64,000 nucleotides of DNA from a virus, in IMG/VR virus record IMGVR_UViG_3300026875_000002; one strand, 5' to 3'. Below the pieces are notes generated by a model. That model was not told the origin of the DNA, made no database searches, and was given only the letters and a program-made list of their open reading frames with translations. Every line of letters begins with the position of its first letter. The first letter of the stretch is position 1. Position numbers and translations under genes: made by a program. Of the stretch, positions 3,521 to 61,774 are shown piece after piece.

Positions 3521-3531
3521 GGTGACAAAGT

Positions 3532-4014: not shown

Positions 4015-4017
4015 TTT

Positions 4018-10410: not shown

Positions 10411-11553
10411 ATGTCAACACAAACAAAAAAGAATAATATACAAACAATATATAATGATGAACTCTTTAAAGAGTTTTGTATATTAAGAAATTTAAAACAA
10501 AGTAGTATAAAATCATACGCAGTAGTGTTAAATAGTTATGTAAAAGTACAGCAAACAGATTTAACAACACTTATAAATGAAGCAGATGAAGAAGAAGAAC
10601 AAAGAATAAGACTAAGCAAAAGAAAAATTAAACGACGTTTAAATAAGTACAAAATAGAATTACAAAAACAAAAATTAAGTGACAGAACAATAAATGATAG
10701 AATTACAAAAATAAGAACATTTTACTCACAATTTGACATAACTCCTCCAAAAATAACAAGAAAACCAGTGAAAAACATAGAAACATATAAACAAATAATC
10801 ACACCAGAACAAATAAGAAAAGCAGTAAACACGAGTAAAAATAATAAAACAAGAGCATTAATATTATTTATGGCATCATCTGGAACAGCAGCAAAAGAAA
10901 CAAGTAATATAACAATCAAAGATTTTATTGAAGCAACAAGCGAATATCATAATGAAACAAGAATAGAACAAGTAATATATGCATTAAAAAATAGAAAAGA
11001 TATTATTCCAACATTTACAATTATCAGACAAAAAACACAAACTCCTTATTTCACATTCTGCACACCTGAAGCAACACAACAAATATTAATTTATCTCACT
11101 GAAGAATTAATGAAAAGAGACTTAAAAGAAGACGATAAATTATTTAATATTACTCCTCAGAGTATACAAACAAATTTTGAAAGATTAAATGATTGTTGTG
11201 GGTTTGGATGGAAAAATAATCATTGTCGTTTTTTTCATAGTCATGGTTTACGAAAAATGTTTGGATCAAGAATGTTTGATGCAGGATTATCAGAGTTAAC
11301 TATTGATTTCTTAGAGGGACGTAGTATAGGAGCAACTCGTCAAGCGTATTATAAGCCAAAACCTGAAGAATTAAAGAAGAAATATGTTCGAGTATTGAAT
11401 ACTGTTAGTTTTTTTAGTGATGTTGAGTATCATGATATTACCTCTGAAGAAAAAGAAGAGTTATTACAGTATCGTGAAAAAGAAAAAGTGAGGGATGAAA
11501 AAATTAATAATTTAGAACGTATGTTGCAAGATTATTTACGTTCTTCTTCATAA
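10411..11553 (+). CDS. int: Tyrosine recombinase/integrase with N-terminal SAM-like domain
   Basis: LKQSSIKSY SAM helix; ILFMASSG box I; HSHGLRK (HxxR); LEGRS; AYY catalytic Tyr. Confidence 0.9.
   Translation: MSTQTKKNNIQTIYNDELFKEFCILRNLKQSSIKSYAVVLNSYVKVQQTDLTTLINEADEEEEQRIRLSKRKIKRRLNKYKIELQKQKLSDRTINDRITKIRTFYSQFDITPPKITRKPVKNIETYKQIITPEQIRKAVNTSKNNKTRALILFMASSGTAAKETSNITIKDFIEATSEYHNETRIEQVIYALKNRKDIIPTFTIIRQKTQTPYFTFCTPEATQQILIYLTEELMKRDLKEDDKLFNITPQSIQTNFERLNDCCGFGWKNNHCRFFHSHGLRKMFGSRMFDAGLSELTIDFLEGRSIGATRQAYYKPKPEELKKKYVRVLNTVSFFSDVEYHDITSEEKEELLQYREKEKVRDEKINNLERMLQDYLRSSS
10414..10443 (+). repeat. 30-bp direct repeat, copy A (integrase codons 2-11)
   Basis: tcaacacaaac-a6-gaataatatacaa; copy B at 12753. 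Confidence 0.8.
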
Positions 11554-22833: not shown

Positions 22834-22913
22834 ACTCTTTTATTTTTATGAGAATATAAAAATACATAATAAAACAATAACTTACTATATGTAAAAATTA
22901 AGGAGGGACTAAC

Positions 22914-23492
22914 ATGATACATATAGAAACAAGAAGTGTGTTATTTGTAAGAGGATATAGTGATGAGTTATTTAAATATCAGTATACTTCAAAAGAAAAA
23001 ATGATTCTAGAAGATGACTCATATATTACACGACGAATAGACTCTACAAATCCTAGTGGAACATGGAATTACTATAATAAAAACAATAAATTCATAAGAA
23101 AAATACCAATAGAGGAATATCCATTTAAAGGAGTAATACCCGAGAATGGAGATGAAGAAGATGATCAATATGGAGTAATATATTTTGCAGATGTAGACAT
23201 AACCCTAAAGGATTTTAAAAAAGAAAAATTAGACATAACCATGCTTAAAAAAGTACAAGAAAAAATAAATAAACAAATTACTCTTTCAAACTTAGAAAAA
23301 GGTTTGAAAATATTCTTCTTAAAAACCATTGAAGAAGGAGAAAAAGGATGGTGCCCTAATGATCGTTGGTTACCTTGTACTATTTGTAGTTTATTTAACG
23401 ATCTTGACAAGACTAATGCAAGGATTAATGATAAATTTTGGGATTATTTAATGAATAATCTTGACACAATCTATGAATTATCTCAATCATGA
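22914..23492 (+). CDS. Hypothetical protein
   Basis: 192-aa ORF with ggaggg SD. Confidence 0.6.
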   Translation: MIHIETRSVLFVRGYSDELFKYQYTSKEKMILEDDSYITRRIDSTNPSGTWNYYNKNNKFIRKIPIEEYPFKGVIPENGDEEDDQYGVIYFADVDITLKDFKKEKLDITMLKKVQEKINKQITLSNLEKGLKIFFLKTIEEGEKGWCPNDRWLPCTICSLFNDLDKTNARINDKFWDYLMNNLDTIYELSQS

Positions 23493-23630
23493 ATGAAAAA
23501 TATATTTTTCTCCCATCCTTCAACAATTTTCTTTTTTTTAAAATCGTTACATGTAGAGTGATGGGAGATAGTTAATCATAATGTATGGTTATCTTAAAAG
23601 CGGTAATAGTATAGAAATAGAAATGAAAAC

Positions 23631-24017
23631 TTGGAATCAAAAATGAAAATATACAACAAACCCGGAAGAGAACACAACACAAACAATGAAGAACCCATGA
23701 AAAAAGGAATAACAAAAGTAGACAATGGATACACAATACGACACACAATCAACGGAAAGACATACTACTATGGATGCTACAAAACACTAGAAGAAGCAAC
23801 AAAGATAAATCATAAACTACTCACAACAGTAAAAGACATAAAACTATACAGCACACAACACACAAAATTACACGGAAAAAAATACAAACAAAAAATAATA
23901 AGAGAATTATGTGGAAAAAAAGAAAACACAAATGTAAATGGTGCGGAAAAACATACTACCGCAGACAAAAAAACACACAATACTGCAGTGAAGAATGCAG
24001 AAAACAAGGAACATTAG
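23631..24017 (+). CDS. AP2-like DNA-binding domain protein
   Basis: GITK...YTIRHTINGKTYYYGCYKTLEEA. Confidence 0.6.
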   Translation: MESKMKIYNKPGREHNTNNEEPMKKGITKVDNGYTIRHTINGKTYYYGCYKTLEEATKINHKLLTTVKDIKLYSTQHTKLHGKKYKQKIIRELCGKKENTNVNGAEKHTTADKKTHNTAVKNAENKEH

Positions 24018-24389: not shown

Positions 24390-24596
24390 ATGACAGAAAT
24401 ACCTAAAGCACCAATAACAAGAATAGTAAAAAATGCAGGAGCAGAAAGAATAAGCAAAGAAGCAGAACAAAAAATAGTAGAAGCAGTAGAACAATACACC
24501 AATAAACTAGCATTAGCAGTAATAGACCTAGCAAAACACGCAGACAGAAAAACAATACAAGTAGAAGATGTAGAACTAACACTCAAACACTTCTAA
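24390..24596 (+). CDS. Archaeal histone (HMfA/HMfB family)
   Basis: MTEIPKAPITRIVKNAGAERIS...AKHADRKTI..EDV; ggaggt SD. Confidence 0.95.
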   Translation: MTEIPKAPITRIVKNAGAERISKEAEQKIVEAVEQYTNKLALAVIDLAKHADRKTIQVEDVELTLKHF

Positions 24597-28794: not shown

Positions 28795-30240
28795 GTGATT
28801 ATTACCATGTTAGTCAACTACGATAAATTAAACCAAACCATCACCGAAAGTGAACAACAAACATATATAGATGAAGTTCTACGCAATCCATACATTCCTC
28901 ATGGTAATAAAAAGGAACCATGGAAAAAAGTAGACCCATTCTATGAACAAATGTTAATACTCATGGATGAATGTGACAAAAAATACCCTGATTATAAATT
29001 AATCAGTGGAGGAGCATTTAGTGGAAAAAGTCAAATGACAGCAATCATGGCAGCAAGATACCTCATATATCCTAACTATCGTGGACTAATACTACGAAAC
29101 ACATATAAACAAGTAGTAAGTAGTGGCGGAGCAGTTGACAAACTCCGTGGATGGTTAGGTGATAAAAAAAGACTTGGAAAATACACATGTAAAGAAAACA
29201 AAACAGAAATGTTCTTTGAAGCACCCAACGGGGCAAGAATATACTACAGTTACTGTGACACACCAGAACAAATGGATAAAATAAGAGGAACAAGTTACCA
29301 TGACATATTCATAGAAGAAGCAAGTGAAATACCTGGAGACATACTAGAATTTCTACCCCGCTCCATACGACCACACAGAGGAAAAGATTATATTCCTGAG
29401 GGATATGTACTTAACAGTAACCCATCATTTGGGCCTGGTGTTGACTGGCTTCATAAAATGTTTCTTGATGAAGATAGTCCTCATAAACATTACACATTAG
29501 ACCTTATGATGAATCCCTTCGTGGATAGAATTGCATATGATAAAAGACTTGCAGAAATGAGTCCAGTACAACAAGCATTCATGCGTTTTGGTGACTGGAA
29601 TTATGTTCCTGATGGTGGACTTCTTCTTACACGTGAACAATTAGAAGAAGCTGAAATTGACCCCCTTGAATTTGATTATAATGATACTATTTTTAGTTTG
29701 ATTGGTGTTGATATTGCTGGTGAAGGTGATGATTACACTAGTCTTACAAGTATACTTTACCTTAAGAATGGTAATGTTATTCTTGATGATAATATTCTTC
29801 TTAATGATAGTACCCTTGAGGAACAAGTAAAACATTTCGTAGAAGAACAGACTGAGAAAACAAAACTCAATCGTATCATCTTTGAAGAAGAAGGAGGAGG
29901 AAGTGCAACCTATGCACTTAAACATTTCAAGCATGTACTAAGTGATATTCAGAAAAAGAATTATTTCAGTGTGAAAATGAAACCAGTACGAAAAAATAAA
30001 TTTGAAAGAGCAAGACCACTAGCATATGGTATACGAAATGGATTTGTACGTATCAACAAGTTTATCCCAAACAAGCAGTTACTACAAAATCAATTCATGT
30101 ATGTAAATCCAGATAAGCAGATAATGAAAAAACATAAAAGTCCGGATTTCCTTGATAGTGCCACTATCGGATATAATAGTCTTAACAGTATGTATAATCT
30201 TGAAGAATACAATAGAAAAATTAGGAGAAATAATAAATGA
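28795..30240 (+). CDS. terL: Terminase large subunit
   Basis: Walker A GGAFSGKS, ILR, Walker B FIEEASE, SNP, nuclease GVDIA..GDDYT and PDFLDS. Confidence 0.93.
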   Translation: MIITMLVNYDKLNQTITESEQQTYIDEVLRNPYIPHGNKKEPWKKVDPFYEQMLILMDECDKKYPDYKLISGGAFSGKSQMTAIMAARYLIYPNYRGLILRNTYKQVVSSGGAVDKLRGWLGDKKRLGKYTCKENKTEMFFEAPNGARIYYSYCDTPEQMDKIRGTSYHDIFIEEASEIPGDILEFLPRSIRPHRGKDYIPEGYVLNSNPSFGPGVDWLHKMFLDEDSPHKHYTLDLMMNPFVDRIAYDKRLAEMSPVQQAFMRFGDWNYVPDGGLLLTREQLEEAEIDPLEFDYNDTIFSLIGVDIAGEGDDYTSLTSILYLKNGNVILDDNILLNDSTLEEQVKHFVEEQTEKTKLNRIIFEEEGGGSATYALKHFKHVLSDIQKKNYFSVKMKPVRKNKFERARPLAYGIRNGFVRINKFIPNKQLLQNQFMYVNPDKQIMKKHKSPDFLDSATIGYNSLNSMYNLEEYNRKIRRNNK

Positions 30241-31676
30241 CTACATTAAATGAATTATTTCCAGAATTAGAAAATTTTCAACAAGAATTAGAGGAATATC
30301 TTACACTTGATGAAAGTAGTACAACACAAAAAAGAGACACAATCCAACATGAATATCTTAAACCTATTGTTGATCCAAGATTATCAAGGTATGTGTATCA
30401 TCGTTGTGATGACCTTCAAAAAGTTTTAACAGTATATGCAAAAGATGTTATTCTTAATGATTTTTCATTAGAAGATGTTGATGAAAACGATGAAAACATT
30501 GAATTAATCAATACAGTATGGAATAATAATGAAAACAAAATACAATTATACTATGCAGTACTTGAATACTTCATATATGGATATGGAGCATTAGAAATTA
30601 TTCAGCAAAGAAAAGGATATTCATTCCAACAAATACCTGCTCATACAATTAAAATAAGAGTAGAACCATTAACAAGTACTGTTACAGGTAATACATATCA
30701 ATTTTATTTTCTTGAACAAGAAATTAACGGAATCAAAACACTACTAAAATTCAGTCATCTTGATTATACTCTTCTTGAAAAATATGGTGATAAGGGTATT
30801 CTTGAGCAACTAGATTATGATAATCTTAATGAATGTCTCTGGTTTGGAGGATGTAATGAAGACCAATTCTTTGATATTCCTGCATGGGAAAGTTGTAGTG
30901 AGAAGATATATACCAACATTGCAATCAAGAAGATGAATCTTAAGAAAATTAATAAGGGAAATGTTCCTGCGGGCGTATTAATGTTTGAAGGACCTCCAGC
31001 ATTACCTGACCCTGATAATCCTGATGAAAAACGTATTGATCATATTCTTGAAGAGAATATTGATGCTACAGAGGGAGGTACCATGTTTACTTATATTACT
31101 AGTGATAGTGAGGAGCGTGGCGTTACTATGCAGTATCAATCTCTTGTTGATAATAATTATGAATATTTTAATGGGTTAGAAGAAGCTAATCGTAAAAGTA
31201 TTTATAAATGTATTGGTGTTCCTCCTATTCGTTTAATGCTCATGGATCAAAAAGAATCTATGAATAGTGATAAAAGTGATAAGGTTTTCAGTATTTATTG
31301 TGATAATGAAATACGTCCAACACAGATGCTTTTTAAGTCACCGATTAATCAGTGGAATAGGAAATATTTAAAGATTACTTCAAGTATTGTTATTGATACT
31401 CCCGAGTTTGTTGATAAGACAGGTATTCGTATTGATAATATTCTTAAAGGTTTTAATGCTGGATTATTAACTCTTGGACAAGCTCTTGAAGGATTAGTTG
31501 ATATTTATCCTCAACTTGACCTTCAAAGGAATGTGGATGATCCAGAATTACTGAACATGAGATTCTATAATGGTAATGCACTAGGTACCAATAATAATGT
31601 TAGTGATAAAGAGGAACAATACACTGACATGATTAAAGGTATGGAATCCTACCTTAACAATATGGACTCAATATAA
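30237..31676 (+). CDS. Portal protein
   Basis: Follows TerL; YFIYGYGALE, QIPAHTI, NVPAGVL, IGVPP motifs. Confidence 0.85.
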   Translation: MTTLNELFPELENFQQELEEYLTLDESSTTQKRDTIQHEYLKPIVDPRLSRYVYHRCDDLQKVLTVYAKDVILNDFSLEDVDENDENIELINTVWNNNENKIQLYYAVLEYFIYGYGALEIIQQRKGYSFQQIPAHTIKIRVEPLTSTVTGNTYQFYFLEQEINGIKTLLKFSHLDYTLLEKYGDKGILEQLDYDNLNECLWFGGCNEDQFFDIPAWESCSEKIYTNIAIKKMNLKKINKGNVPAGVLMFEGPPALPDPDNPDEKRIDHILEENIDATEGGTMFTYITSDSEERGVTMQYQSLVDNNYEYFNGLEEANRKSIYKCIGVPPIRLMLMDQKESMNSDKSDKVFSIYCDNEIRPTQMLFKSPINQWNRKYLKITSSIVIDTPEFVDKTGIRIDNILKGFNAGLLTLGQALEGLVDIYPQLDLQRNVDDPELLNMRFYNGNALGTNNNVSDKEEQYTDMIKGMESYLNNMDSI

Positions 31677-31682
31677 TGTGGG

Positions 31683-33545
31683 ATGGGATGTGATTACCCT
31701 ATGCTACATAAAAAGAAATTATTAAAGGTAATTGATTACCTTTACACTGCCAAGGCATATGATGATGCAATGACTCATTACATGATGGATGCCATTGATG
31801 ATGCTACTCTTTTTGAACTTCTTCGTAACCCCTCTCTTTTTATGAATATTGCCCTTTATAATCAGTTTACACGTAAATATTTTCCACAAATAAACACATC
31901 CAGTGATATTCAAAGAGCTGGAACACCCCTTCATAGAACAATAATTGAACAAACAATAAAACAAAACATGACAACACAGGAACAACGAAGACAAAGAATA
32001 TATAAAATTAACTATGAACAACTACTACGAGACTCTAACAGAATACGACAAAACAAACAAGTACCTAACACAACAACAAACAATGTACGAATACATGACA
32101 TACAAAACAAGACAACAAGAGACCTCACAGAACAACATGAAAAACTAATAAACGCCCAAATAGACAAACTAGAAAAAGAATTCAGAGAACTAGTAGAACA
32201 AGATGAACCAATAATCAAGGGACCAAACATAAAAGAAAACAAGGAAATAAAAAAACTAAGAAAAGAACACAACAAACAAATAGCGAGACAAAACAAGAGA
32301 TTAGCAAAAAACAAGGACAACAGAGTCAAATGGATGACAGAACGCTTGAAAGATAAGCCCCACATCTACAAAGTATGGAATCAAACACCAAATCCAAAGA
32401 CAAGACATACTATAACAGATGGACAAAAAGTACCACTAGAAGAAAAATTTGAGGTAATTAATGATAAAACAGGACAAATAGATATGATGGATTACCCTGG
32501 AGATTGGAAGGGTAGTCCTGCAAATACTGCTAATTGTTTATGTGAATTAAGTTTTACTGATGATGACAGTAATGTGTATGATCCTAAGAAGAAATCAGTA
32601 CGAGAGGAATATCTAGAATTACAGAAAAAAGTAGATAGACTAGAAGAAGGATTTGGTGAACGAGCAATAAAATTGATTAATGATGCGACTTTTCTAGGAA
32701 ATGATAATGATATAAAATGGGTATTAAAACATTTGGGGATAGGTTACAAAGAAAGGAATAGACTACATATATCTGATATTAATAAAGCGTTAGATGTACG
32801 TGATAAGTATATTCAAGAGGGATATTATGAATCTGATTTTAATTTAGAAAAAGCATATGGTAAAATATATATGGAACATGTGACAGCTAATATAAATAAT
32901 TTATTAGTTGATAGTGTTTCAAAAAAAAGTAATTCACATAGTTATAATATTTTATCTAAACATTATAACCGTAGAAGAATAGAAAGGGATAAGGCGCTAT
33001 ATTCCCCTGAAGAACTTAAAGCTTTGGATTTTTATTCAAAACCTATTTTTTATTCAACATTTAACGCATGGCAACGTCAAAATTTTTCAAAAAAAGTATT
33101 AGAAGATGAAACTAAAAGGGAACACAGTCTTTTAAGAAAGTATGATGCCGATTCTTTAGAAAAGATCTTTAAAAAAAATTACAATATTTTAAAAGATATG
33201 AGTATTCCATTAAACCAGGATATTATATTATATCATGGACAAGGAAATTTATATCCTAGCGATGGGAAGGAATTAAAAGAGAAGGGAGTGTGGAACAATA
33301 CTTTAAGTTTAGGTGCTTTTAAGCAAAGTGGGTTAAAATATGCAACTAATAATGGTGAAAAAATGATATTATTCAAGGTATATATTCCAAAAGGTACAAG
33401 AGTAACACCTATATTACAATTAAGTAGTAAACTTGGTAATACTGTTGAATCAGAATTATTACTTGATAGAGGACATGAGTATAAAGTAGATCATTATTAC
33501 TATGATGAAGGCTGTGCTACTAGAGATGTAAGATTAATTAATTAA
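31683..33545 (+). CDS. MuF (SPP1 gp7-like) head protein fused to a C-terminal Vip2-like ADP-ribosyltransferase
   Basis: MuF motif KVW....KTRH...DGQKV...F......YPGD..GSPANTANCLC; ART motifs E..AL.FY, DIILYHG, YIPKGT, ESELLLDRG. Confidence 0.85.
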   Translation: MGCDYPMLHKKKLLKVIDYLYTAKAYDDAMTHYMMDAIDDATLFELLRNPSLFMNIALYNQFTRKYFPQINTSSDIQRAGTPLHRTIIEQTIKQNMTTQEQRRQRIYKINYEQLLRDSNRIRQNKQVPNTTTNNVRIHDIQNKTTRDLTEQHEKLINAQIDKLEKEFRELVEQDEPIIKGPNIKENKEIKKLRKEHNKQIARQNKRLAKNKDNRVKWMTERLKDKPHIYKVWNQTPNPKTRHTITDGQKVPLEEKFEVINDKTGQIDMMDYPGDWKGSPANTANCLCELSFTDDDSNVYDPKKKSVREEYLELQKKVDRLEEGFGERAIKLINDATFLGNDNDIKWVLKHLGIGYKERNRLHISDINKALDVRDKYIQEGYYESDFNLEKAYGKIYMEHVTANINNLLVDSVSKKSNSHSYNILSKHYNRRRIERDKALYSPEELKALDFYSKPIFYSTFNAWQRQNFSKKVLEDETKREHSLLRKYDADSLEKIFKKNYNILKDMSIPLNQDIILYHGQGNLYPSDGKELKEKGVWNNTLSLGAFKQSGLKYATNNGEKMILFKVYIPKGTRVTPILQLSSKLGNTVESELLLDRGHEYKVDHYYYDEGCATRDVRLIN

Positions 33546-33586
33546 GAAAAACACAGTAATATATAACAACAAAATTTTGGTGAAGA

Positions 33587-33907
33587 ATGTTGAAAAAATA
33601 TCATGTAAAATATAGTGGGGAAAGTTTAGTAGAACATAGAGAATACTTAAAGGAAATAATAAAATATCTCAAAAAACATCCTGAAGAAGAAGGATTATAC
33701 TTATTTGCCAGTGAGTTCCAATATACTCTTGGAACTGAGGATCCATTGTATGCAAGAGTTCAAGATTTATTTGATGAAAATCCATGGTGTACAATATATA
33801 GTAACCTGCATACTAAGGCTAGAAATGGAGATATGATGGATCAAAAGGAGTTTCATGATTATTTTGTTAAGAAGTTTCCGCAGTGGAAAGATATCTATTA
33901 CTACTAA
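33587..33907 (+). CDS. Small protein after MuF-ART (candidate immunity/inhibitor)
   Basis: 106 aa, aromatic and acidic, ggtga SD, directly after the toxin domain. Confidence 0.55.
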   Translation: MLKKYHVKYSGESLVEHREYLKEIIKYLKKHPEEEGLYLFASEFQYTLGTEDPLYARVQDLFDENPWCTIYSNLHTKARNGDMMDQKEFHDYFVKKFPQWKDIYYY

Positions 33908-34251
33908 CTCTCTTTCACTCTCTTTTTTTAACTTTATTATTTTTTTTGTTTTTCAGCATTAATAGAATTCCCTCCACATGTATTAATAGTAGTGAAGAAA
34001 TGTACAATAACCTGCCTTAAATTATACGAAAATAAAAACTTTTCACCTCCACACTCCATTTTTGCCGATGATGAATTTTACTAATTTTTTTTTATAATAC
34101 TATTAATTCGGAGGTAAAAAATACAATAATTAATCCCATAATACTTAAGGGTATAATTTAATGGTTTTATTAATATAATATAAATAATTGCTAAACCAGG
34201 TAATCCTCATTAATTATAATCCAAGAGCATAATGGAGGAGGAATAAAACAC

Positions 34252-35325
34252 ATGCCAACTGATGTAATCTACATAAAATGCTGTGTACTCGCAAGCCAAA
34301 TACCAGACATAACCAATGATGTACTACAAAGAAGCGACATCAAAAAAATATTCGCAAACACTAAAAACATCAATTTCGACATAGAACACCAACGAAAATA
34401 CCTAAGTGGGATAGAGATTGTTGAGAATTATATAAATCAAACAGAAGAACACATCAAAGGTACAATGATACCTCCTGGTTCATGGATAATGGTCTTAGCA
34501 ATCTACAACAACCAACTACAAAACAGTATACAAGAGAACAAGATAAGAGGAGTAAGCCTAAGAACAGCACTAGGAGAAGCAGTAAACCTAACAGACAATA
34601 CACTAACCGGAAGAATAGAATACAAAGACATACTAAACAAGGAAGAAATGCAACCAGAAAGCATAAGCTTCACAAGTGACCCAGCAAATGAAATACCAAT
34701 AGAAGTAATGACATACGAGGCATACACGGCAAAAAATAAGAATAGAAGAACAGGTGACAAAATGATAAATGAAGATAGTGAAAACAGTTTTTGGAGAAGA
34801 CTCTTCAAAGAAAATTTCACAGCAAAAAATACTGCAAACCCAACACCTCAACCAACAAGTGAATTACTTGGAAGTGTTGATGCAGAAGAATTTATGAATT
34901 CTATGATAGAATCTCAAAAAGCAATATCAAAACAAACCGAACTAATACAAAAATTAGTAGAAAGTCAGACAAAAAGTGCTGATGCAATAAATAATCTAAA
35001 AATAGAACTAGAACAATTCAAACTAAATCTTTCAGACATGAAACTAGCAACAACAAACACAGAAGAAACTACAGAACCCAAAGAACAAGACACAGAAAAT
35101 CAAGAAGAAAACACAGAAGAAATAGAAACAAAACCCCAGGATGCTAAAGAAAAACAAAACACAGACAAAGAACAAGATGAAAACAAAGAAAAAGAAAAAC
35201 CGGAAGAAAAACACACAGCAAAATCAAGAAAACCAGTAAGAAGGTTAGTACAAACTAATCAAGAACAAGAAGAAATCCTAAAATTCATAGCAAACAGAAG
35301 TTATGAAAACTTTATGAAAAACTAA
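34252..35325 (+). CDS. Prohead protease (XkdF-like) with scaffolding C-terminus
   Basis: D..NDV....DI...FDIEH...VENYI...PGSWI....I.ENKIRGVS; acidic coiled-coil tail. Confidence 0.75.
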   Translation: MPTDVIYIKCCVLASQIPDITNDVLQRSDIKKIFANTKNINFDIEHQRKYLSGIEIVENYINQTEEHIKGTMIPPGSWIMVLAIYNNQLQNSIQENKIRGVSLRTALGEAVNLTDNTLTGRIEYKDILNKEEMQPESISFTSDPANEIPIEVMTYEAYTAKNKNRRTGDKMINEDSENSFWRRLFKENFTAKNTANPTPQPTSELLGSVDAEEFMNSMIESQKAISKQTELIQKLVESQTKSADAINNLKIELEQFKLNLSDMKLATTNTEETTEPKEQDTENQEENTEEIETKPQDAKEKQNTDKEQDENKEKEKPEEKHTAKSRKPVRRLVQTNQEQEEILKFIANRSYENFMKN

Positions 35326-35350: not shown

Positions 35351-36595
35351 ATGAATAATTTCATATTACCAGATAGTGCATTTGCACCAGGTGTAATACC
35401 ATCCTACGATGAATTAAACAAAAACAAACATGGAGTAATCAGATGGTTACCACAAAACAAATTATTATCTGAAACAGCTGCATACACAGCAAAAAGTGCT
35501 AATCGTATGAGCTTTGAATCAAATGTAGGTGAACCATTCTATCACACAGATAATGGATCAATAGTAAAACCCGGTATGCTTCCAGCAGCAGAAGCAACAG
35601 CATTTCTAGCTGAAAGAACATACAGAAGCACATTCCACAAACTATGTAATTATGAACCATTAATTGCAAAGGAAACCAAACGTGTATACTATGGTGTTGA
35701 TGAAAACATAGAAGGTCTTGCAAATATACAAGATGGAAAACAAAGAGTAAGAAACGACATCAAAAGAGATACACACAAAACTAGAGATAAAGTACTAAGA
35801 AGTGAAACATACGTAGAAACAGCAGACTTCACAAGAGAAGACCTTAAAAACAATCTTGAGGGTCAACGATTCCTACAAACATACATCAACACAATCAGTC
35901 AAAAAAGAGAATGGAATTTAGGATTACTTGAATTATATTCTAAAAAAGATACAACAGCAGGGGACACTAGTGGACTTCATGTAAATGATGGATTATTCAA
36001 ACAATTAGATGATGCATATACCTTCTACAAAGAACACCTTGAAGACACAGATAGTGTACTATACGGACAAGGATACTATTGTGGTATTCATGGAACAGGT
36101 ACTGATAAAATACCACTCGACTTCACAAAAACAGATAGAAACCAAAGTGGAAACATTATAGAACAATTAGTTGACATGAACACACAATATTACACACAGC
36201 AAGGTCTTGACCAACAACAATTCCTAGTAAGTCCAGAAGCATATGGTAACCTAGGTAAACTTGCAAGTAGCAGAGAAACAGAACGTGGGGATAAATTATA
36301 CTTTGATGGAGATGCACTAAGAGTAAATGGAGTACCAGTAATACCATGTATGGAACTTGGACTCCCACGTAATGGATACAAACAACATGTACTCCTAGGT
36401 AACTTCAGAAGTGGTGTAACAAATGGATTCAGAGAAGAATTTAACACTGAAATTAATTATGATTTCAATGAATTCATGTGGAAAGTATCCACCTTTGTCG
36501 AATTTGGTACACTCCTTGAACATGAACAAGATGTACTTGCAGCTGAAGTAACTGGTCTTCCAACTCAGAAAGCAGAGACAAAGGTAACGCCCTAA
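35351..36595 (+). CDS. Major capsid protein (HK97 fold)
   Basis: Position after the protease; 414 aa; NDGLFK, FLVSPE.Y, GVPVIP, VLLGNF motifs. Confidence 0.82.
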   Translation: MNNFILPDSAFAPGVIPSYDELNKNKHGVIRWLPQNKLLSETAAYTAKSANRMSFESNVGEPFYHTDNGSIVKPGMLPAAEATAFLAERTYRSTFHKLCNYEPLIAKETKRVYYGVDENIEGLANIQDGKQRVRNDIKRDTHKTRDKVLRSETYVETADFTREDLKNNLEGQRFLQTYINTISQKREWNLGLLELYSKKDTTAGDTSGLHVNDGLFKQLDDAYTFYKEHLEDTDSVLYGQGYYCGIHGTGTDKIPLDFTKTDRNQSGNIIEQLVDMNTQYYTQQGLDQQQFLVSPEAYGNLGKLASSRETERGDKLYFDGDALRVNGVPVIPCMELGLPRNGYKQHVLLGNFRSGVTNGFREEFNTEINYDFNEFMWKVSTFVEFGTLLEHEQDVLAAEVTGLPTQKAETKVTP

Positions 36596-51087: not shown

Positions 51088-51333
51088 ATGATAAGTAATG
51101 AACTAAAAAATTTGATAATACCTAACCTGAAATTACATCTTCCTGAAGAAAGATATCAGTATATTGAACAATGTTTTGCGGAATGTTATATCACAATTGA
51201 GGATGGTCAACAAATAGTATCCTTGGCTCCTGTCCTTGATGATGGGCTTTCCCTCCAATTTGATTTTTTGACTGGCACATTTTTTGATATTGTGAACTGG
51301 GAAGAGGTGAAAAAGGAGGGTAAATTGTTATGA
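51088..51333 (+). CDS. Small acidic hypothetical protein
   Basis: 81-aa ORF abutting the tail lysin stop codon. Confidence 0.5.
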   Translation: MISNELKNLIIPNLKLHLPEERYQYIEQCFAECYITIEDGQQIVSLAPVLDDGLSLQFDFLTGTFFDIVNWEEVKKEGKLL

Positions 51334-53765
51334 AATACACAACTGAAGTTGGTGAAAATGGGGAGTTCCACGCCCCCACAGAACTAATACCAGGAAGGTA
51401 CAAGACAACAATCAACTATACAGACAACAAAAACCAGAAATTCGGGTCCTCAGAATGGACTGGAAAACTACACATCCGGCACAGCGTATACCTTGAATGT
51501 AAGGACATTTCCGTGGATGCATACAGTACGACCACAATAAAAGAACGTTTGGTTGATTACCAAAAAGAACCTCTCGTAAACGCTGAAGTTAAAATGAAAT
51601 ATTCAAATAGTAGTACTGTCACTACTCTTACTACTGACTCTGAAGGTTATTTTTCTTTTGTGTACAATGCTACTCGGAGTGGTACTGTTGACGTCACTTT
51701 CTCTTATGCGGGAAGTAAGTATTATATTCCCATAACTGGAACTATTACTATTACTACATTACCTTCAACGCCTACAATTACAATAAGTGATGTGAAGAGG
51801 TATATAAAACAAGACCTTGAAATACCGGTTACGCTTAGTGTTCATAATCATAAACTAATTAATAAAACACTTATTTTCACAATCAATAATAATACATATA
51901 CTGTTACAACTGATAGTGGTGGGAATGCTACACTTACAGGGTGTTCTATTGATACTACAGGCACATATAACTGTACAGTTTCATACACTCCTAGCACAGA
52001 GAAGGTTAATGGGAGATGTGACAGCTGGGATTATAATAGTGTTTCAAAGAGTTTTATAATCATAGTTATGCCAAAAAGAACGCCTATCGTCACTGCTACT
52101 GTTACAAGTCCTGTGGATTATAAGGGGACTAGTAACTTTGTGTTAACGTACGTGGATCCTGCTACAAATCAGCCTGTGAGTGGTGTAGGTATAATTATAC
52201 AGATTCCACGCGAATCTTTTTCGGATTATCTCATCACTGATAGTAATGGTCAGATTAGTTTGAGTCATACCATGACAGTGGTAGGGTTGAATGATATTGT
52301 ATTTATCACGAATGAAAGACGAGCTTTTAATAGGGTACGTGTTTCAAAAGTTGTTATTGTCAACCCTGTACAAACGAAACTTTCTGGAACAACAAATAGT
52401 ATAATGTATAGTGAGGAAGCGAGTGTTACATGTACATTAACAGATGTAGATGGGAATAAGTTGAGTAATAAACGTATTACTGTATATTCTAATGATGGTG
52501 ATTTTGTAGGTAATGGTACAACAAATAATAATGGGCAATGTATCATCAAATTCACTCCAGCCAATGTAGGTACACTTACCTATACCCTACAATTCGAGGG
52601 AGACAATCAATATTCTTCACAAAACGCACAGTTTACACTCACCGTACAGAAGATATCTACAAAATTCACTGGAAATACTACAATATCCCCACATGCAGGG
52701 GAAGAAATACCAATTACATTAACCCTTGTAACAAACAAGGGAAAAACATTACCCAACAGGACAATCACAGTCACAGATAATAATAAAACAATTACAACAA
52801 CAAGTGATTCAAAGGGACAATTCACATTCAACACCATTGGAGGATTAAATGAGAAAAGAAGCGCAACAGTAAAATATCTGGGAGACACGTATTATAACAC
52901 ATGCACAGCAACAATAACACTCAATTTTGGAAAATATGTTCCAACATTAAATGTAGACACAAGGGAGAATAGTATAGGGTCACCATGTGTATTCTATGTG
53001 AAAGTATCAGGAGCTAATAATGTAACCCCTACTGGTAGTGTTACTTATGAAGCAGAATCACAGAAAAATACAGTTACATTAAGTCCTGGTGAGTGGAGTA
53101 TATGTGACAAGTATGTCCCTACAGAGGCAGGGTATAACGATATCACACTAACTTACAAGGGTGATGATAATTATATTTCAGTAACAAAGGACATATCAGT
53201 CTACACTTCTCCAGGGATTGTTGAAGATTGTTCTAGTCTTGATCATTTTTACATACGAACAATCAAGTATCAAGATTATTACCCTACTCCTACAGAGAAC
53301 CCTATTGTTGACGGAGGAGGAATTCATGGGTTTTACGGTCGAGCAATCTGGGCTGAAAACCTGAAAGTAACAAATAACTGTAAGGTTACCATGGAGATAC
53401 AAGTGAAAAATGTGGATCATGGTTTCAATTTTGGACTTGTAACAAAGGGAAATATGTCCCGTACTGCGGTACTTCTTGAACAGAGTTCGAGTAGGGCTTA
53501 TTTTTATTTTGCAACAAATACAAATGGAAAATATAATATTCCAAGCGTGAACTGGAATAGATTATCTCTGAATACATGGTATACTGTTGAGTTCAATATT
53601 CAAAATGGTAAATGTACAGTGAAGGTGAATAATTCTACGTATACTCATGATATTATTATTGATGATAATACGTATCCTGCGATTTTTGTGTGGAGTCCTC
53701 GTTTGAGTGGTGAATCTTCTTCTAGTGAAATTATATGTAGAAAGATTGTATTAATCAAAAGGTGA
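51330..53765 (+). CDS. Adhesin-like protein: several Ig (Big) domains plus C-terminal lectin-like domain
   Basis: Repeated TTD..G...F, Y.GD..Y, ..PTL motifs; beta-rich terminal domain with LNTWY.VE. Confidence 0.75.
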   Translation: MKYTTEVGENGEFHAPTELIPGRYKTTINYTDNKNQKFGSSEWTGKLHIRHSVYLECKDISVDAYSTTTIKERLVDYQKEPLVNAEVKMKYSNSSTVTTLTTDSEGYFSFVYNATRSGTVDVTFSYAGSKYYIPITGTITITTLPSTPTITISDVKRYIKQDLEIPVTLSVHNHKLINKTLIFTINNNTYTVTTDSGGNATLTGCSIDTTGTYNCTVSYTPSTEKVNGRCDSWDYNSVSKSFIIIVMPKRTPIVTATVTSPVDYKGTSNFVLTYVDPATNQPVSGVGIIIQIPRESFSDYLITDSNGQISLSHTMTVVGLNDIVFITNERRAFNRVRVSKVVIVNPVQTKLSGTTNSIMYSEEASVTCTLTDVDGNKLSNKRITVYSNDGDFVGNGTTNNNGQCIIKFTPANVGTLTYTLQFEGDNQYSSQNAQFTLTVQKISTKFTGNTTISPHAGEEIPITLTLVTNKGKTLPNRTITVTDNNKTITTTSDSKGQFTFNTIGGLNEKRSATVKYLGDTYYNTCTATITLNFGKYVPTLNVDTRENSIGSPCVFYVKVSGANNVTPTGSVTYEAESQKNTVTLSPGEWSICDKYVPTEAGYNDITLTYKGDDNYISVTKDISVYTSPGIVEDCSSLDHFYIRTIKYQDYYPTPTENPIVDGGGIHGFYGRAIWAENLKVTNNCKVTMEIQVKNVDHGFNFGLVTKGNMSRTAVLLEQSSSRAYFYFATNTNGKYNIPSVNWNRLSLNTWYTVEFNIQNGKCTVKVNNSTYTHDIIIDDNTYPAIFVWSPRLSGESSSSEIICRKIVLIKR

Positions 53766-55081: not shown

Positions 55082-56260
55082 GTGTACACATATATGACAC
55101 TTGAGTATGAACTTGGTACTGATATTGATAGGCATTGGATTCTGAATAGTGAAGGTGACCTTCAAACAGTCAGTGGAAAAGATAACCTGCGACAAGCTAT
55201 TTATAATAGGATTACATGTTATTTTGATAATCTTTCATGGTGTTATGACAATTATGGTAGTTATGTGAAAGATTGGTTCGGGAGAATTAATGATGAGTAT
55301 CATAAAAACACTCTAACCCATGAAATAGAAGTAAGAGTACAAGAAGATTTACGGATAGCAGAAGTAACATGTACTATTACAGATTATTCACCTTATTATA
55401 TTGGTGTTCTTATTAAGGGTATTGTTGTTGAGGATTCTAGTGAGTTTAATGAATATTATATATTTGCATCAGGAACTCATGATACTATTGTAGATAATTA
55501 TAATGAAACATTTCATGAGACACATATTGTTACGGAAGGTGTTGGGTATTATAGTACTTATGGTAATGTTGTACGTGTTCATTGTCATGTACTTGATGAA
55601 AGGAATAAACGTGTTCCAATTGGTAATGTAAGCCTTTGGTTTGGGGGTCATTTTGTGGATAGTCTTGAAATAGAGCAAAGTGGTGATACTGAGCCAGGTA
55701 GTGTTACTTTTAATGTGACCACACCTTTGTATATGAATTATGGTCGACACGAACTCAAATTTATGTATCAAGGAAAACCGGGGTATAACCCATGCGAACA
55801 CACTGCGTATATTACTATTCTTGAAAAACTTCCAACGACTTCGATGATTGAAGATGAAAGTAGCCTGTATGTTATCAATAATACGGATAACGTTGGAAGG
55901 AACGTGAATGTGGATGTGAAAGATGTTAATCTTCAACCTGTGAACATGGGTGTGGCAAATGCATCTGTGGATGATGGAGTTATTGACACAATTACAATAA
56001 CGAATCCTATTATTTATTGTAACGCAAATCTTGTTGAAGAAAAAGTATCAATAACTACAATACCTCTTCTTAGTCAACTTACAAAAAGGTATATTTTTGT
56101 AATATCACGTAACTTCAGAGATAATGATATTATTCGTTTGATTGATAAAGATGCAAATCTTATTGATAATCTTCTTATAAGGTACCAAAATGGAAAATAT
56201 TATTTTACAACTACGAAAAAGGAATATAATACAGAAACAGTGTTGAAGGTGTATGCATGA
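55082..56260 (+). CDS. gp25/gpW-like baseplate wedge protein fused to Ig domain
   Basis: GDLQTVSGKDNLRQAIYNRI...YGS...D.RI.EV; Ig motif YQGKPGYNP. Confidence 0.75.
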   Translation: MYTYMTLEYELGTDIDRHWILNSEGDLQTVSGKDNLRQAIYNRITCYFDNLSWCYDNYGSYVKDWFGRINDEYHKNTLTHEIEVRVQEDLRIAEVTCTITDYSPYYIGVLIKGIVVEDSSEFNEYYIFASGTHDTIVDNYNETFHETHIVTEGVGYYSTYGNVVRVHCHVLDERNKRVPIGNVSLWFGGHFVDSLEIEQSGDTEPGSVTFNVTTPLYMNYGRHELKFMYQGKPGYNPCEHTAYITILEKLPTTSMIEDESSLYVINNTDNVGRNVNVDVKDVNLQPVNMGVANASVDDGVIDTITITNPIIYCNANLVEEKVSITTIPLLSQLTKRYIFVISRNFRDNDIIRLIDKDANLIDNLLIRYQNGKYYFTTTKKEYNTETVLKVYA

Positions 56261-59094
56261 CTAAGAAAAAACTTGGAAGTAATAAGGTACGTGAAGGAAA
56301 AAGTAGTATCCCCCTGAAAGTTAAGGATAAACTAGAATTAGGACAATACCCATTAAACATTGAATACGAAGAAAATAGAACGTATGCAGAAAGTAATGCC
56401 TATGGAACACTATTTTATGGTTGGAAAAGTTTTGTACATTGTCCGAATGTTTATGTTGTGGAGGGGGAGGATATGTATACTACACTTCGTGCAAATATAT
56501 TCAGTAATGAAGATATTGTTTATGCTGGAGAAGGTAGTTTTAGCATAAAAGAGAAAACACAAGAAAAAGTTCCTGTAGAAGATGGGTGTGCTACTCATCA
56601 CTTATCTGATATTCAAAGTTGGAAAAATAAGAATCCTTACTTTAGTTTTCTGTATGATGTGCACCTGCCCTTGAATTATTGTTCTGCGCGTAGTAATACT
56701 GCTGAAATAATATACCTTCCTCATACAAAACGGTACGCGGTGGTTGTCAAAATTATCACAGATCCTGTGATAGGATACACTGGGGATACAGTACGTGTTA
56801 TTGCAAGGATATACAAAGCACAGTATGGTAGTCTGATTGATCATAAGGATGTACCAGATAATGGGTATGCGCGGTTACTAATTGATGGAGCGGTAGCTGG
56901 TACTACTAGTATAACTGACACGGGATATGTGTCATTTGATTATACTGTACCTGAAATGGGTTGTGGGGTGTACTCCGTGGTTGTGGAGTATGTTTCTCAA
57001 GATGAATACTATGATGATAGTGCATGTGAAGGCACATTATTCGTACCGTCCCACGACGTAACACTTCCTACTGCCACATGTACCCAAATATGGCACTCTC
57101 TTGGTGGTACTGCTAGTATCCCTGTTACTTTTTCTGATATATCCCTATTTGACAAGGTGCAAGTGTATATTGATAGTCAGCTTGTACCTGTAGAGGGAAG
57201 TGATGAAAATGGTTACTTGATTGTACAAGGTACAGAAGTTACGCTTACGTTTAATATTCCCAAGGGATATTCCTCAAAGTGTGTGTGGGCTTATTCAGGG
57301 GAGCATCTTATGTACCTTGAGTATACGGATAATGTTCATCATGTTACACGAAAACTATTTCTCCCATTCCTTCTGATTCAGTATCCTACAGCAATCCAGC
57401 TAAAATCGTATGGACTTGATGATACAAGCACAATGATTGTAGGAAATAATATTGAAGGGACGGTAATTAATACATTTGAACCGAAACGGTTTGTAAATCA
57501 TGGACTTATTACTATTGATATTGAAGGATTGGAGGTTCTTCTTTCAGTAACACGTGATGTTGATTGTAGCATGGGGGTGCAACATCCTCAGGGTATATTG
57601 TTTGTAAATGAAACATGTACGTTCAGAGTAACAGCTCAAAGCAATACTACTGTACCCATCCCTAATCGGACTGTAACACTTGTTACAGGAAATCAAAATT
57701 ATACATCTACTACTGATGAGGATGGTGTTGCAACATTTTCAAAGAAATACACTCAGAGTGGGACAGATACTGTATACGCACTATTTCCAGGTACAGAAAC
57801 AGAAGCAGAAACACAAACAACACCAGTAACACTGGAAATACTTGACCTAATCAAATCTGAATTATCCCATGAGATATCTTCAGATAATCTCATAACATCA
57901 ATTACTCCTATTAGGGAGAGTTTTCCCCATGGGGGCACAATAAGTGTCACATTCAAGCCTGTGCCTCTATTTACAGTTATTCCCCCATTACAGGATAATT
58001 TCAAAGTGGGAGAATCTATAGTAATAAAAGCAAATGTTTCCCTCGAATACAAACCAGCAGTAGATATCCCTGTGATATTAAGAGTAAGTATAACAAAAGA
58101 GGATGGTACAGTACAAGACTATGAGTCAATACAAACAATGAAAACAGACTCTGTGGGGGACATAACATGTACTACTGCTCAGGATGTATCAGGTGAATGT
58201 AGCTACACACTCTTCATTGAGGGTACAGATGATTATGAACAATGTGTATCAGATGAAATAATCCTTGATGTAACAAGAATACAAACCACAATATCCTCAA
58301 CAGTAACAAATAACCAAGCTGGAAGTAGTAGTATAGATGTAACACTCATTGACGAAGATAACAATGGGGTTGTTGACGTAAATATAATTGTAACACTTAC
58401 TGATGGGTCAACAAGGTCTGGTACAACAGACAGTTCGGGAAACGTGAATATACCATTAACATCACTCCAAGTAGGGTCCCATACGTTAACAGTATCATTC
58501 CCAGGAAATAATAAGTACGAACCTGCAAGTACAACATGTACTATAGATATCGCCCCAAACATAGATTTCTATAATAGTGCGAATTGGGGAGGAAACCCTG
58601 TAATAGATGTTACTAACCAAAAAATAACAATGACTGGTGCAAACATCACATATTATGAGGGAGCTTCTGTAAAGGACTTGCTTAGTGACACTGCTATTAG
58701 TCTTACATATTTCCATAATGGCCGGGATGGACGGAAAGCATTAGGAGTTTATAATCCTGAACTAAGTTCATGGATAGGTTACTGTACCCCCAGCCCGAAC
58801 GGTAGTGAAGGACATGGAGTAAATGAGGAAAAAGGTTACACGCATAACATATCTACAGATGTAACAAACGCAGCCTCATGGATGCGGGATGGACAGGAAA
58901 GTCCACTCGTGATAGGCTATAATGAGGTTGAGGACAATATTTCACTTCAGTATACAAGTCAAGATGGAACAGAAAATGTGACTGTAACCATCCCTCTTGA
59001 GGGAGTGGATCTTAGTAAATATTACCTCGCATTCTATGATTACCGCGGAATGGGAATGTATGTGAAAAATATAACACTCATGGAGGACATGTAA
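56257..59094 (+). CDS. Multi-Ig adhesin-like tail protein with terminal beta-sandwich
   Basis: Repeated TDE.G.A.F, FPGN.KY.P Ig motifs. Confidence 0.7.
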   Translation: MTKKKLGSNKVREGKSSIPLKVKDKLELGQYPLNIEYEENRTYAESNAYGTLFYGWKSFVHCPNVYVVEGEDMYTTLRANIFSNEDIVYAGEGSFSIKEKTQEKVPVEDGCATHHLSDIQSWKNKNPYFSFLYDVHLPLNYCSARSNTAEIIYLPHTKRYAVVVKIITDPVIGYTGDTVRVIARIYKAQYGSLIDHKDVPDNGYARLLIDGAVAGTTSITDTGYVSFDYTVPEMGCGVYSVVVEYVSQDEYYDDSACEGTLFVPSHDVTLPTATCTQIWHSLGGTASIPVTFSDISLFDKVQVYIDSQLVPVEGSDENGYLIVQGTEVTLTFNIPKGYSSKCVWAYSGEHLMYLEYTDNVHHVTRKLFLPFLLIQYPTAIQLKSYGLDDTSTMIVGNNIEGTVINTFEPKRFVNHGLITIDIEGLEVLLSVTRDVDCSMGVQHPQGILFVNETCTFRVTAQSNTTVPIPNRTVTLVTGNQNYTSTTDEDGVATFSKKYTQSGTDTVYALFPGTETEAETQTTPVTLEILDLIKSELSHEISSDNLITSITPIRESFPHGGTISVTFKPVPLFTVIPPLQDNFKVGESIVIKANVSLEYKPAVDIPVILRVSITKEDGTVQDYESIQTMKTDSVGDITCTTAQDVSGECSYTLFIEGTDDYEQCVSDEIILDVTRIQTTISSTVTNNQAGSSSIDVTLIDEDNNGVVDVNIIVTLTDGSTRSGTTDSSGNVNIPLTSLQVGSHTLTVSFPGNNKYEPASTTCTIDIAPNIDFYNSANWGGNPVIDVTNQKITMTGANITYYEGASVKDLLSDTAISLTYFHNGRDGRKALGVYNPELSSWIGYCTPSPNGSEGHGVNEEKGYTHNISTDVTNAASWMRDGQESPLVIGYNEVEDNISLQYTSQDGTENVTVTIPLEGVDLSKYYLAFYDYRGMGMYVKNITLMEDM

Positions 59095-59137
59095 TAATGA
59101 ATAATATATACATAGCAACAGTTACAGGAGGAATAAT

Positions 59138-59857
59138 ATGACTATTAAAAATAAAACACTACCTGTAACAGAGGAAAAATGTATTTTTCCCCTCACAAAT
59201 CTCCGGGGGGAGTATGTATGCACAATTGAATACTCTGGTGATTCACATTATATGGGTGCTACAGAAGATAATTATCATTTGAAATTAACCCCTACCACAA
59301 AAACAGTCAACATGAATGATAATGGGGAATGGGATATCCAGTATTGCGCAGATGCAACAAACCCTGTTGACCCTACATTTGGTAGTACAATCAAGAGTGG
59401 AGTATTTTCAGAGGTGATTCATAAAATAAGAACACGCGTGAATTCAAGGTATGTTTGTGAAATAACAGTAAACCAAGAGGGATCGAATCAAGGATTTATT
59501 CTTGGTTTTTTTGGTTCAAAACAGGTTGATGATAATATAATCTGGACATACACATGGGGTATTGAATCAGACGAACTTGGAACTCACTTTACAAGTAATG
59601 AATCTCAGGAGAGCATACATGATATTGAAGAATTATTCCCTCAGGGTGTACAAACAAGAGTGATATTTGATATTCTTGCAGTGAATGAGGGGGATGATTG
59701 TTATGTGTCAATCAGTATTGGAAACACTACTTTTGAAAATATTGTACAGTTTGATGAACCAGAGGACCTCCGGTTTGGTTTCATGTCAACAGCACCTGAA
59801 GACAAACAGTTAGTAATTCACTCTCTGAAATATACTGAGTGGGATGCGGAAGAATAA
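59138..59857 (+). CDS. Tail-associated beta-sandwich protein (copy of 1381..2100)
   Basis: Identical translation. Confidence 0.45.
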   Translation: MTIKNKTLPVTEEKCIFPLTNLRGEYVCTIEYSGDSHYMGATEDNYHLKLTPTTKTVNMNDNGEWDIQYCADATNPVDPTFGSTIKSGVFSEVIHKIRTRVNSRYVCEITVNQEGSNQGFILGFFGSKQVDDNIIWTYTWGIESDELGTHFTSNESQESIHDIEELFPQGVQTRVIFDILAVNEGDDCYVSISIGNTTFENIVQFDEPEDLRFGFMSTAPEDKQLVIHSLKYTEWDAEE

Positions 59858-61277: not shown

Positions 61278-61288
61278 GGTGACAAAGT

Positions 61289-61771
61289 ATGACAAATAGA
61301 TGGACTCCTATAGAGAATAGACTACATGAAGAAAGTGCATTACACTACCCAGATAACACGATGCGGCGAATACTCGAACCACTCTTAAATGGTCTGTTTG
61401 ACGCGATAGAAGAGGAAATGAATGATATTATCTATGAATGTTTCCTCCTCACCAGCACTGGACAGTACCTAGATTTTTTCGGCGTGGAAATAGGACTTAC
61501 ACGTGAAAATGATGAAAGTGATAATGAGTATAGACAAAGATTGTTCAATGCACTTTCAGAGTACTTGAGTGTCAGTTTTGTGAAACTTCAAGGAATAATA
61601 CTATACGCAAAAGAAGAATTGTACAATGATATCCGGATAAATATGACTAGTCAAAATCCCTATATGAGCAATATTTATGCAGGGATACCTCGAAATGATG
61701 TAAGTAGCAGATTCTTGTTATACGATATGATTTATGAGTATACTGTCTGTCATTATGTGAAGGGGTGGTAA
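61289..61771 (+). CDS. Baseplate wedge protein (copy of 3532..4014)
   Basis: Identical translation. Confidence 0.7.
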   Translation: MTNRWTPIENRLHEESALHYPDNTMRRILEPLLNGLFDAIEEEMNDIIYECFLLTSTGQYLDFFGVEIGLTRENDESDNEYRQRLFNALSEYLSVSFVKLQGIILYAKEELYNDIRINMTSQNPYMSNIYAGIPRNDVSSRFLLYDMIYEYTVCHYVKGW

Positions 61772-61774
61772 TTT

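Follow-up and report, generated by a model that had tools for sequence, protein, structure and literature searches.

The window analyzed here is a stretch of 64,000 nucleotides of viral DNA (IMG/VR virus record IMGVR_UViG_3300026875_000002), and the subject of this report is a pair of adjacent genes in its head module, the first encoding a 620-amino acid (aa) protein in which a MuF-type region is joined through a linker to a C-terminal domain with the C3/Vip2 ADP-ribosyltransferase (ART) fold, and the second encoding a 106-aa protein (the partner) that is a candidate inhibitor of the ART. An earlier observation made on this DNA (the initial annotation), of a MuF-ART gene with a small gene downstream, situated between the portal and prohead protease genes, is confirmed, the open reading frames (ORFs) lying where they had been placed, and the MuF core, linker and Vip2-fold ART having the support of PHROG profiles and an AlphaFold2 (AF2) model (Table 1). 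Bases 1-6243 of the window are repeated exactly at 57758-64000, from which it follows that the sequence represents a circular genome of ~57,757 bp that was written out beyond its own end. With TerL, portal, XkdF-type protease/scaffold and capsid-like proteins identified by Pfam and PHROG, this is the genome of a tailed virus, with a GC content of ~30%. The nearest relatives of the genes studied come from Methanosphaera genomes and metagenome-assembled genomes (MAGs), so that the host, as judged from these relatives, is the gut methanogen Methanosphaera, and not Methanothermobacter, the organism named in the initial annotation. Related loci are designated below by numbers prefixed L, and loci in genomes by numbers prefixed G.

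The Vip2-type fold proposed for the C-terminal domain, with its alpha-lobe, split beta-sandwich and ARTT loop, was recovered when the domain was modeled with AF2 (pLDDT 81, pTM 0.79), and Foldseek placed the model among the ART toxins of the C3/Vip2/iota/CDTa group at E values of 1e-10 to 1e-8, the structural matches including a Listeria ART toxin, C3larvin, Certhrax, CDTa, C3bot, iota and Vip2. VIA comparisons of the same model gave Z scores of 14-16 (15-16 for the C3 exoenzymes and the Vip2/iota/CDTa enzymes that carry the R-S-E triad of PF03496), with a root-mean-square deviation of ~3 Å over 165-178 residues. The comparison with PF03496 that had been suggested gave a transitive link. Exhaustive phmmer searches tie the ART domain to P0011 (E 3e-13), P0013 and P0014, all of which pass PF03496 (ADPrib_exo_Tox), P0011 with 32 bits against a cut-off of 23.4; the 620-aa protein itself has no direct match to PF03496 or to Pfam generally. 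A search of PDB sequences with the ART domain alone returned chance matches only, while a profile built solely from the clade of histidine-bearing relatives described below (the His clade) gave two PDB matches at E <= 1, both of them ARTs (C3stau2 at E 0.04 and C3larvin at E 0.12), and a mixed ART profile matched Vip2 at 1e-30.

Upstream of the ART domain, the protein matches the PHROG head-morphogenesis/MuF families phrog_2468 (E 9e-10) and phrog_859 (E 6e-10), which cover aa 76-316 and 219-299, and aa 144-300 match actinophage "MuF-like fusion proteins" in tblastn searches. Remnants of the N-terminal region (aa 1-140) are present in the Methanosphaera chromosomal loci L006 and L010. No family match was found for the linker, across which nucleotide identity to the sister virus L015 falls from at least 97% to 92-94%. 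The ART half had been said to differ in composition from the 5' half, and it does: the linker and ART, like the small gene, are C-poor (C 10-11%) and T-rich, compared to ~18% C in the MuF, protease and major capsid protein (MCP) genes, and the GC skew reverses near 32450-32600.

Table 1. Features of the MuF-ART locus and its neighbors, in coordinates of the window
Feature	Coordinates	Strand	Basis or remark
MuF-ART fusion gene, 620 aa (P0001)	31683..33545	+	ORF between portal and XkdF-type protease
N-terminal region, aa 1-140	31683..32102	+	identity to L015 99%, to L002 65%
MuF (SPP1 gp7-like head morphogenesis) core, aa 141-300	32103..32582	+	PHROG, tblastn; 38-99% identity in related loci
Linker, aa 301-400	32583..32882	+	start of divergence hot spot
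C3/Vip2-fold ART domain, aa 401-620	32883..33545	+	AF2, Foldseek, VIA, link to P0011
His518 codon (CAT) in place of the R-S-E arginine	33234..33236	+	alignments A3/A4
Ser542-Leu543, S-T-S cut to S-L	33306..33311	+	Ser invariant in A4; Thr to Leu in His clade only
Glu589-Ser-Glu591, ExE of the ARTT loop	33447..33455	+	Glu591 invariant; first position E or Q
Shine-Dalgarno-like GGTGA, 3 nt before ATG of small gene	33579..33583	+	read from sequence
Partner gene (P0002) for an all-helical protein of 106 aa, a candidate inhibitor of the ART (immunity protein)	33587..33907	+	AF2; follows ART; co-diverges
T-rich tracts 3' of small gene, possible archaeal oligo-T terminator	33915..33948	+	read from sequence
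Divergence hot spot: linker, ART, partner, intergenic spacer	32580..34250 (approximate)	.	nucleotide identity to L015
TerL	28795-30240	.	gene order
Portal	30237-31676	.	gene order, just before 620-aa gene
XkdF-type protease/scaffold	34252-35325	.	after 106-aa gene
Major-capsid-like	35351-36595	.	after protease/scaffold

Active site of the ART domain

The initial annotation had read the three motifs of the R-S-E triad as altered in the first two and kept in the third, with LYHG in place of LYRG, NTLS in place of STS, and ESE for ExE. Alignments A3 and A4 bear out the first reading, with His518 at the arginine position, and Glu589 and Glu591 bear out the third (one relative has Q-T-E in place of ExE). 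The second reading holds in part, because the motif is indeed changed (NTLSL) but the serine itself is retained as Ser542, and it is the threonine that is lost. Compared to the C3 and Vip2/iota/CDTa enzymes, the domain also keeps the helix Asn (Asn461), the aromatic residue before the first motif (Tyr517), the Phe-Lys/Arg of the PN loop (Phe546-Lys547, with Lys or Arg in relatives) and an ARTT loop with ExE, and, the arginine and threonine excepted, these NAD-pocket residues are invariant across members of the His clade that are only 52-55% identical. The differences from the R-S-E enzymes are His for the triad Arg, Leu for the Thr of S-T-S, a score under the Pfam threshold, and fusion to a virion-type protein instead of secretion.

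To place this active site amongst its relatives, ARTs were surveyed in 314 species genomes of the family that contains Methanosphaera sp. WGK6 (Methanobacteriaceae), with homologues found in 39 of them. Nearly all of the alignable ARTs have Arg, S-T, and [EQ]-x-E, with a few exceptions in which K or E stands in place of the Arg, or D, H or K in place of the first Glu. The combination of Y-H-G with S-L is confined to the window and its kin (L001/L036, L002, L015-17, L023/L037, L024 and L031), which form a monophyletic clade (support 100/99) on a stem branch of 1.12 substitutions per site, the sister group being Arg-type ARTs of Methanosphaera (85/87). From the monophyly of the His clade it follows that the change of Arg to His arose once and was then maintained, and the ratio of nonsynonymous to synonymous substitution rates (dN/dS) of the ART domain between distant members of the clade, 0.28-0.43, shows the domain to be under purifying selection. 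We conclude from these comparisons that the "H-S-E" ART is a derived form, maintained under selection, in which the NAD pocket is largely intact, and, because the rest of the pocket is retained, the enzyme is presumed to be active.

As an alternative, the C-terminal domain may have lost catalysis and persist as an ART-like pseudo-enzyme that binds a host protein or serves in head assembly, the small protein then having a structural or regulatory role and not that of an antidote. Throughout the clade, the arginine with which R-S-E ARTs contact the NAD phosphates has been replaced, as has the neighboring threonine, changes that would mark a loss of NAD use, and mutation of this arginine in characterized toxins strongly lowers activity. 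Furthermore, the His clade sits on a long stem branch, PF03496 no longer recognizes the domain, and inactive ART-like domains exist, among them the N-terminal domains of binary toxins and domain 2 of anthrax lethal factor, the latter matching the ART model at Z 14.3. However, Asn461, Tyr517, Ser542, Phe546, Lys/Arg547, Glu/Gln589 and Glu591 are all retained at ~52% identity, whereas known dead ARTs have lost these residues, and the ancestral H-Y-E ARTs, which bind NAD, have a His at the structurally equivalent position. The purifying selection seen between distant members, and the sharing of a partner family with canonical R-S-E ARTs, likewise speak for a working enzyme, and we regard a dead module as a real rival but an unlikely one.

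The 106-aa partner, with and without an ART

The small gene, noted in the initial annotation as an ORF with its own Shine-Dalgarno sequence after the MuF-ART gene, was found as described, and the AF2 model of its product consists of seven helices (pLDDT 94). Homologues fall into ~25 clusters, of which the few with a source name are from Methanosphaera, and a homologue lies directly after the ART in every related virus or remnant fetched (L001, L002, L003, L005, L006, L013 and L015-17), as well as in the genome loci G277 and G281; no second copy of the ART or of the partner was found in the window. The partner or its kin start 12-90 bp downstream of the ART gene at these loci and in the window, and outside Methanosphaera, too, almost all ART genes of the family are followed at 12-90 bp by an ORF of 50-150 aa. 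The same pairing is seen for stand-alone ARTs of 150-233 aa that have no MuF region, which argues that the partner is tied to the ART rather than to head assembly. A C-terminal motif, F-[IV]-x-K-[HYF]-P-[QE]-[WFY], which in the window reads FVKKFPQWKDIYYY, recurs in many of these downstream ORFs; the pattern, which was written after the fact, is found in 37 of 1007 unique ORFs, nearly all 37 being ART partners or orphan members of the family. Moreover, partner subfamilies follow ART subfamilies. Related viruses had been suggested as a place to look for cognate small genes, and the partner or its kin do follow the ARTs in all related loci, MuF-fused or not, a distribution that supports a functional tie between small gene and ART.

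The initial annotation had also raised the question of whether the small gene is conserved independently of the C-terminal domain, and here the findings are divided: the gene follows ARTs in related loci, but ART-less copies are found by cas1-cas2, by restriction-modification (RM) and helicase genes, and in decayed chromosomal loci. One such orphan, on a 221-kb contig without any ART (L007-9), is 96% identical to the window's partner (97% in nucleotides), and its match to the virus opens 12 bp upstream of the start codon, immediately past the point where the ART would stop. Around this orphan lie MazG-like, SLFN-type helicase, transposase fragment, MmeI-type RM and PLD-SNF2 genes. Another, on a 2-kb contig (L014), lies directly after cas2-cas1 and has 98.7% nucleotide identity to the copy in virus L013. 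In a chromosomal Methanosphaera locus, one allele (L003) consists of MuF-ART and partner, and the other, present on dozens of contigs, is without the MuF core and ART but has two intact partner genes. Orphan immunity genes are typical of polymorphic-toxin systems, and we infer that the close orphan copies are genes of this kind; their occurrence fits a host that disarms an incoming enzyme.

Several further arrangements were seen at these and related loci. At L010:4395-5964 (also L011 and L012; G293:C1:977328-978267) an N-terminal MuF remnant and the last 26 ART codons accompany two tandem partner genes, with a SocA/Panacea antitoxin fragment between the latter, and this locus is allelic to the intact MuF-ART locus L003. 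In the head module of another provirus (L035:1-2278, G291:C42), three tandem partner-like genes of 122-136 aa are arranged around a short XkdF-type protease gene; a weak "ART" match at this locus was rejected, as it corresponds to the XkdF protease. The 221-kb orphan contig also has a second, 95%-identical patch in inverted orientation, containing a 192-aa ORF (L007:624-1323 and window 22871-23746), which points to mosaic exchange between the virus and a host island. In two viruses with canonical Arg-type MuF-ARTs, a Tad2-like gene (PF11195, E 6e-18), of a family of Thoeris anti-defence sponges, directly follows the partner (L013:4769-5035 and L005:4753-5112), thereby placing a second, apparently NAD-related counter-defence gene in the same slot. 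No Tad2-like gene was found in the window by tblastn, the slot being occupied by a 344-bp spacer with no Tad2 remnant. On the host chromosome of Methanosphaera sp. WGK6, an ADP-ribosylglycohydrolase gene (PF03747; L006:482-1273) lies 3.5 kb upstream of a fragmented MuF-ART and partner, and could serve as an antidote that acts enzymatically, like the BAH described below.

One can also read the 106-aa protein as something other than an ART inhibitor, either an accessory moron (with a role in anti-defence or superinfection exclusion, for example) or a chaperone that loads the MuF protein, the link to the ART being positional only. The partner moves alone as a cassette with breakpoints at its own boundaries, is found without an ART in several genomes, and has distant relatives (E 1e-5 to 1e-9) in housekeeping contexts, beside genes for an XPD-like (DEAD_2) helicase, F420 ligase and TiaS with no ART nearby (L028, L033, L030 and L034; G291, G274 and G284), such that the family may also have a cellular role. 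It has no match in Pfam, nor do ten further partner-like ORFs, and no match in PADLOC. Profile searches of PDB gave weak matches only (the best, EsaG at E 0.17, is not relied on), the fold yielded Foldseek E values > 1 and Z scores < 5 in a wide VIA comparison, and the matches in ESM Atlas were confined to TPR-like helical look-alikes (TM ~0.5); by these routes the partner is without detectable similarity to immunity families or folds already known. In SPP1-like head modules, moreover, it is common for small ORFs to lie between MuF and scaffold genes. A role in head assembly is nonetheless at odds with the presence of the partner after MuF-less ARTs outside of head modules (L039, L042 and L044; chromosomal L003 and L006), and a chaperone for a viral protein would be useless beside host cas or RM genes. 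A purely positional link is likewise hard to reconcile with the correspondence between partner and ART subfamilies, or with the accelerated amino-acid evolution of the partner within the ART's hot spot, at the same dN/dS (see below). For these reasons we doubt that the partner has no inhibitory role, and favor the reading of it as a cognate inhibitor.

Joint divergence, known systems and the proposed cassette

Compared to the sister virus L015, the TerL, portal, protease and MCP, aa 1-400 of the MuF-ART protein and three more head/tail proteins are 98-100% identical. Identity is only 79% for the ART and 81% for the partner, against 98% for aa 1-400, and between 28 and 38.3 kb the hot spot that they form with the linker and the spacer is the only place where nucleotide identity stays under 95% over long runs, there being elsewhere a few isolated 100-nt windows at 94-95%. 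By the Nei-Gojobori method, the ART has a dN/dS of 0.66 against L015 and the partner one of 0.68, versus 0.05-0.13 for the flanking genes. Simple cassette replacement by recombination was considered as the sole cause of the hot spot and rejected, because in the hot-spot genes dN exceeds the level of the flanks 15-40 times, and dS only ~2x. Both the ART and the partner are thus gaining amino-acid changes much faster than the genes around them. Substitutions in the ART cluster in the alpha-lobe, surface loops and the first turn of the ARTT loop, leaving the catalytic and core strands unchanged, and those in the partner cluster in helices 3 and 5, with the termini unchanged. The alpha-lobe and ARTT loop, fast-changing here, are the usual substrate-recognition surfaces of ARTs. 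In the more distant virus L001, the ART is 53% identical, above the portal (38%) and the N-terminal MuF part (38%), a pattern that suggests exchange of the ART cassette between virus backbones. In both comparisons, which bear on the suggested check of relatives for swapped C-terminal domains, the toxin domain diverges independently of the MuF part. The spacer between the partner and protease genes (33908-34251, 344 bp) is unusually long, hypervariable and non-coding, with 27-67% identity to the sister virus and indels, between flanks whose identity is at least 96%, and it contains no ORF or motif that is convincing.

The element may be temperate, as it has an integrase-like ORF at 10411-11553, whose match to PF00589 (E 1.8e-5) is under the curated cut-off, and relatives in Methanosphaera genome assemblies. 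Phage T4 Alt, another head-carried ART, is packaged by means of a capsid-targeting sequence, without a MuF fusion, and keeps the R-S-E triad, and we know of no immunity gene for it. Alt is delivered at infection to modify host proteins (cited in PMC5576092), as the ART described here would be. MuF-ART toxins are already known in bacteriophages. MuF polymorphic toxins with immunity genes were defined in temperate bacterial phages, with ARTs making up 14% of them (Jamet et al. 2017, PMC5576092; Zhang et al. 2012, PMC3482391), and fusions of Alt/VIP2-type ARTs to MuF have been noted (PMC9503650). The present locus resembles these systems in its N-terminal MuF region, the position of the gene right after the portal in the packaging module, the variable C-terminal toxin, the small gene downstream and a possibly temperate element. 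It differs in that the systems were described from bacteria and their phages only (archaea are not mentioned in PMC5576092), whereas the host here is a methanogenic archaeon, the triad has His for Arg, and the partner belongs to an undescribed helical family. A second point of comparison is Bxa-Bsi-BAH of a Bacteroides stercoris prophage, in which the MuF-ART Bxa is neutralized by a small binder, Bsi, together with a hydrolase, BAH (Alexei et al. 2024, PMC11699363). By description, Bxa is likewise a prophage ART toxin with an N-terminal trafficking domain, and Bsi an adjacent, small, non-enzymatic binder modeled in the active site; unlike that system, no ADP-ribosylhydrolase (BAH-like) gene was found in the virus in tblastn searches of the window with the L006 hydrolase, and binding by the partner is predicted only. 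No description of virion-delivered effectors or MuF-ART cassettes in archaeal viruses was found in the literature searched, a search that did not extend to Medvedeva et al. 2023 on methanogen viruses. Particular to this locus are the H-S-E clade, the sharply bounded and co-diverging hot spot, and the near-identical orphan partners beside cas and RM genes.

The locus is probably an archaeal-virus form of a MuF polymorphic toxin/effector cassette. The injected-effector/immunity cassette proposed in the initial annotation is upheld as regards its MuF, linker and ART architecture, its altered triad, and a small gene tied to the ART by linkage and co-divergence, and it is packaging, ejection, catalysis, target and inhibition that we infer. 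The 620-aa protein would be built into the procapsid by way of its MuF part, because MuF proteins of the SPP1 gp7 type bind the portal and leave with the DNA, and its C3/Vip2-fold ART would reach the next Methanosphaera cell along with the genome, there using NAD+ to modify a host macromolecule. The H-S-E enzyme, with His518 for Arg and Leu543 for Thr, would be active, though its handling of NAD may be altered. Its cognate binding partner would be the 106-aa helical protein, most likely an immunity protein that inhibits stoichiometrically and keeps the ART silent in the producing or lysogenic cell, and hosts with orphan copies of the partner may blunt the incoming enzyme. Weighing against this cassette, besides the points on which the two alternatives above draw, are the absence of a match between the 620-aa protein and the Pfam MuF model at E up to 1, and the fact that dN/dS values of 0.66-0.68 would also be expected under relaxed constraint. 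The correlation between ART and partner pairwise identities (r = 0.90, Mantel, 0 of 2000 permutations) is weak evidence for it, because adjacent genes share a history.

Elsewhere in the genome, the virus encodes an archaeal histone (24390-24596; PF00808, E 1e-15), and two large proteins (51330-53765 and 56257-59094) with Big_3_5, Big_1 and CarboxypepD_reg Ig-like domains resemble the adhesin-like proteins of Methanobacteriaceae and are probably tail fibers or receptor-binding proteins. The head module had no match amongst GenBank phages in blastn searches, and a scan for sigma-70 promoters and hairpin terminators is uninformative here, as the virus is archaeal.

Virion-delivered effectors are well studied in bacteriophages, and the pair described here, a 220-aa enzyme domain and a 106-aa partner in a virus of a human and animal gut methanogen, is tractable and permits a direct test of enzyme injection by an archaeal virus. 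The replacement of the NAD-binding Arg by His, with the rest of the pocket intact, is a natural experiment on the ART active site. The pairing itself is widespread, extending to nearly all of the family's ART homologues as a small downstream ORF, many with the shared C-terminal motif. The joint rapid evolution of enzyme and partner, and the presence in hosts of near-identical partners next to cas and restriction genes, are signs of an active arms race. A bolder reading, which at present seems improbable to us, is that the H-S-E ART is a working enzyme whose chemistry or target changed through one neofunctionalizing step, and whose antidote gene has repeatedly been captured by hosts, beside CRISPR-cas and restriction genes, as an antiviral defence that disarms the injected enzyme. 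If this were true, the orphan partners would be to archaea and their viruses what acquired orphan-immunity islands are to gut bacteria.

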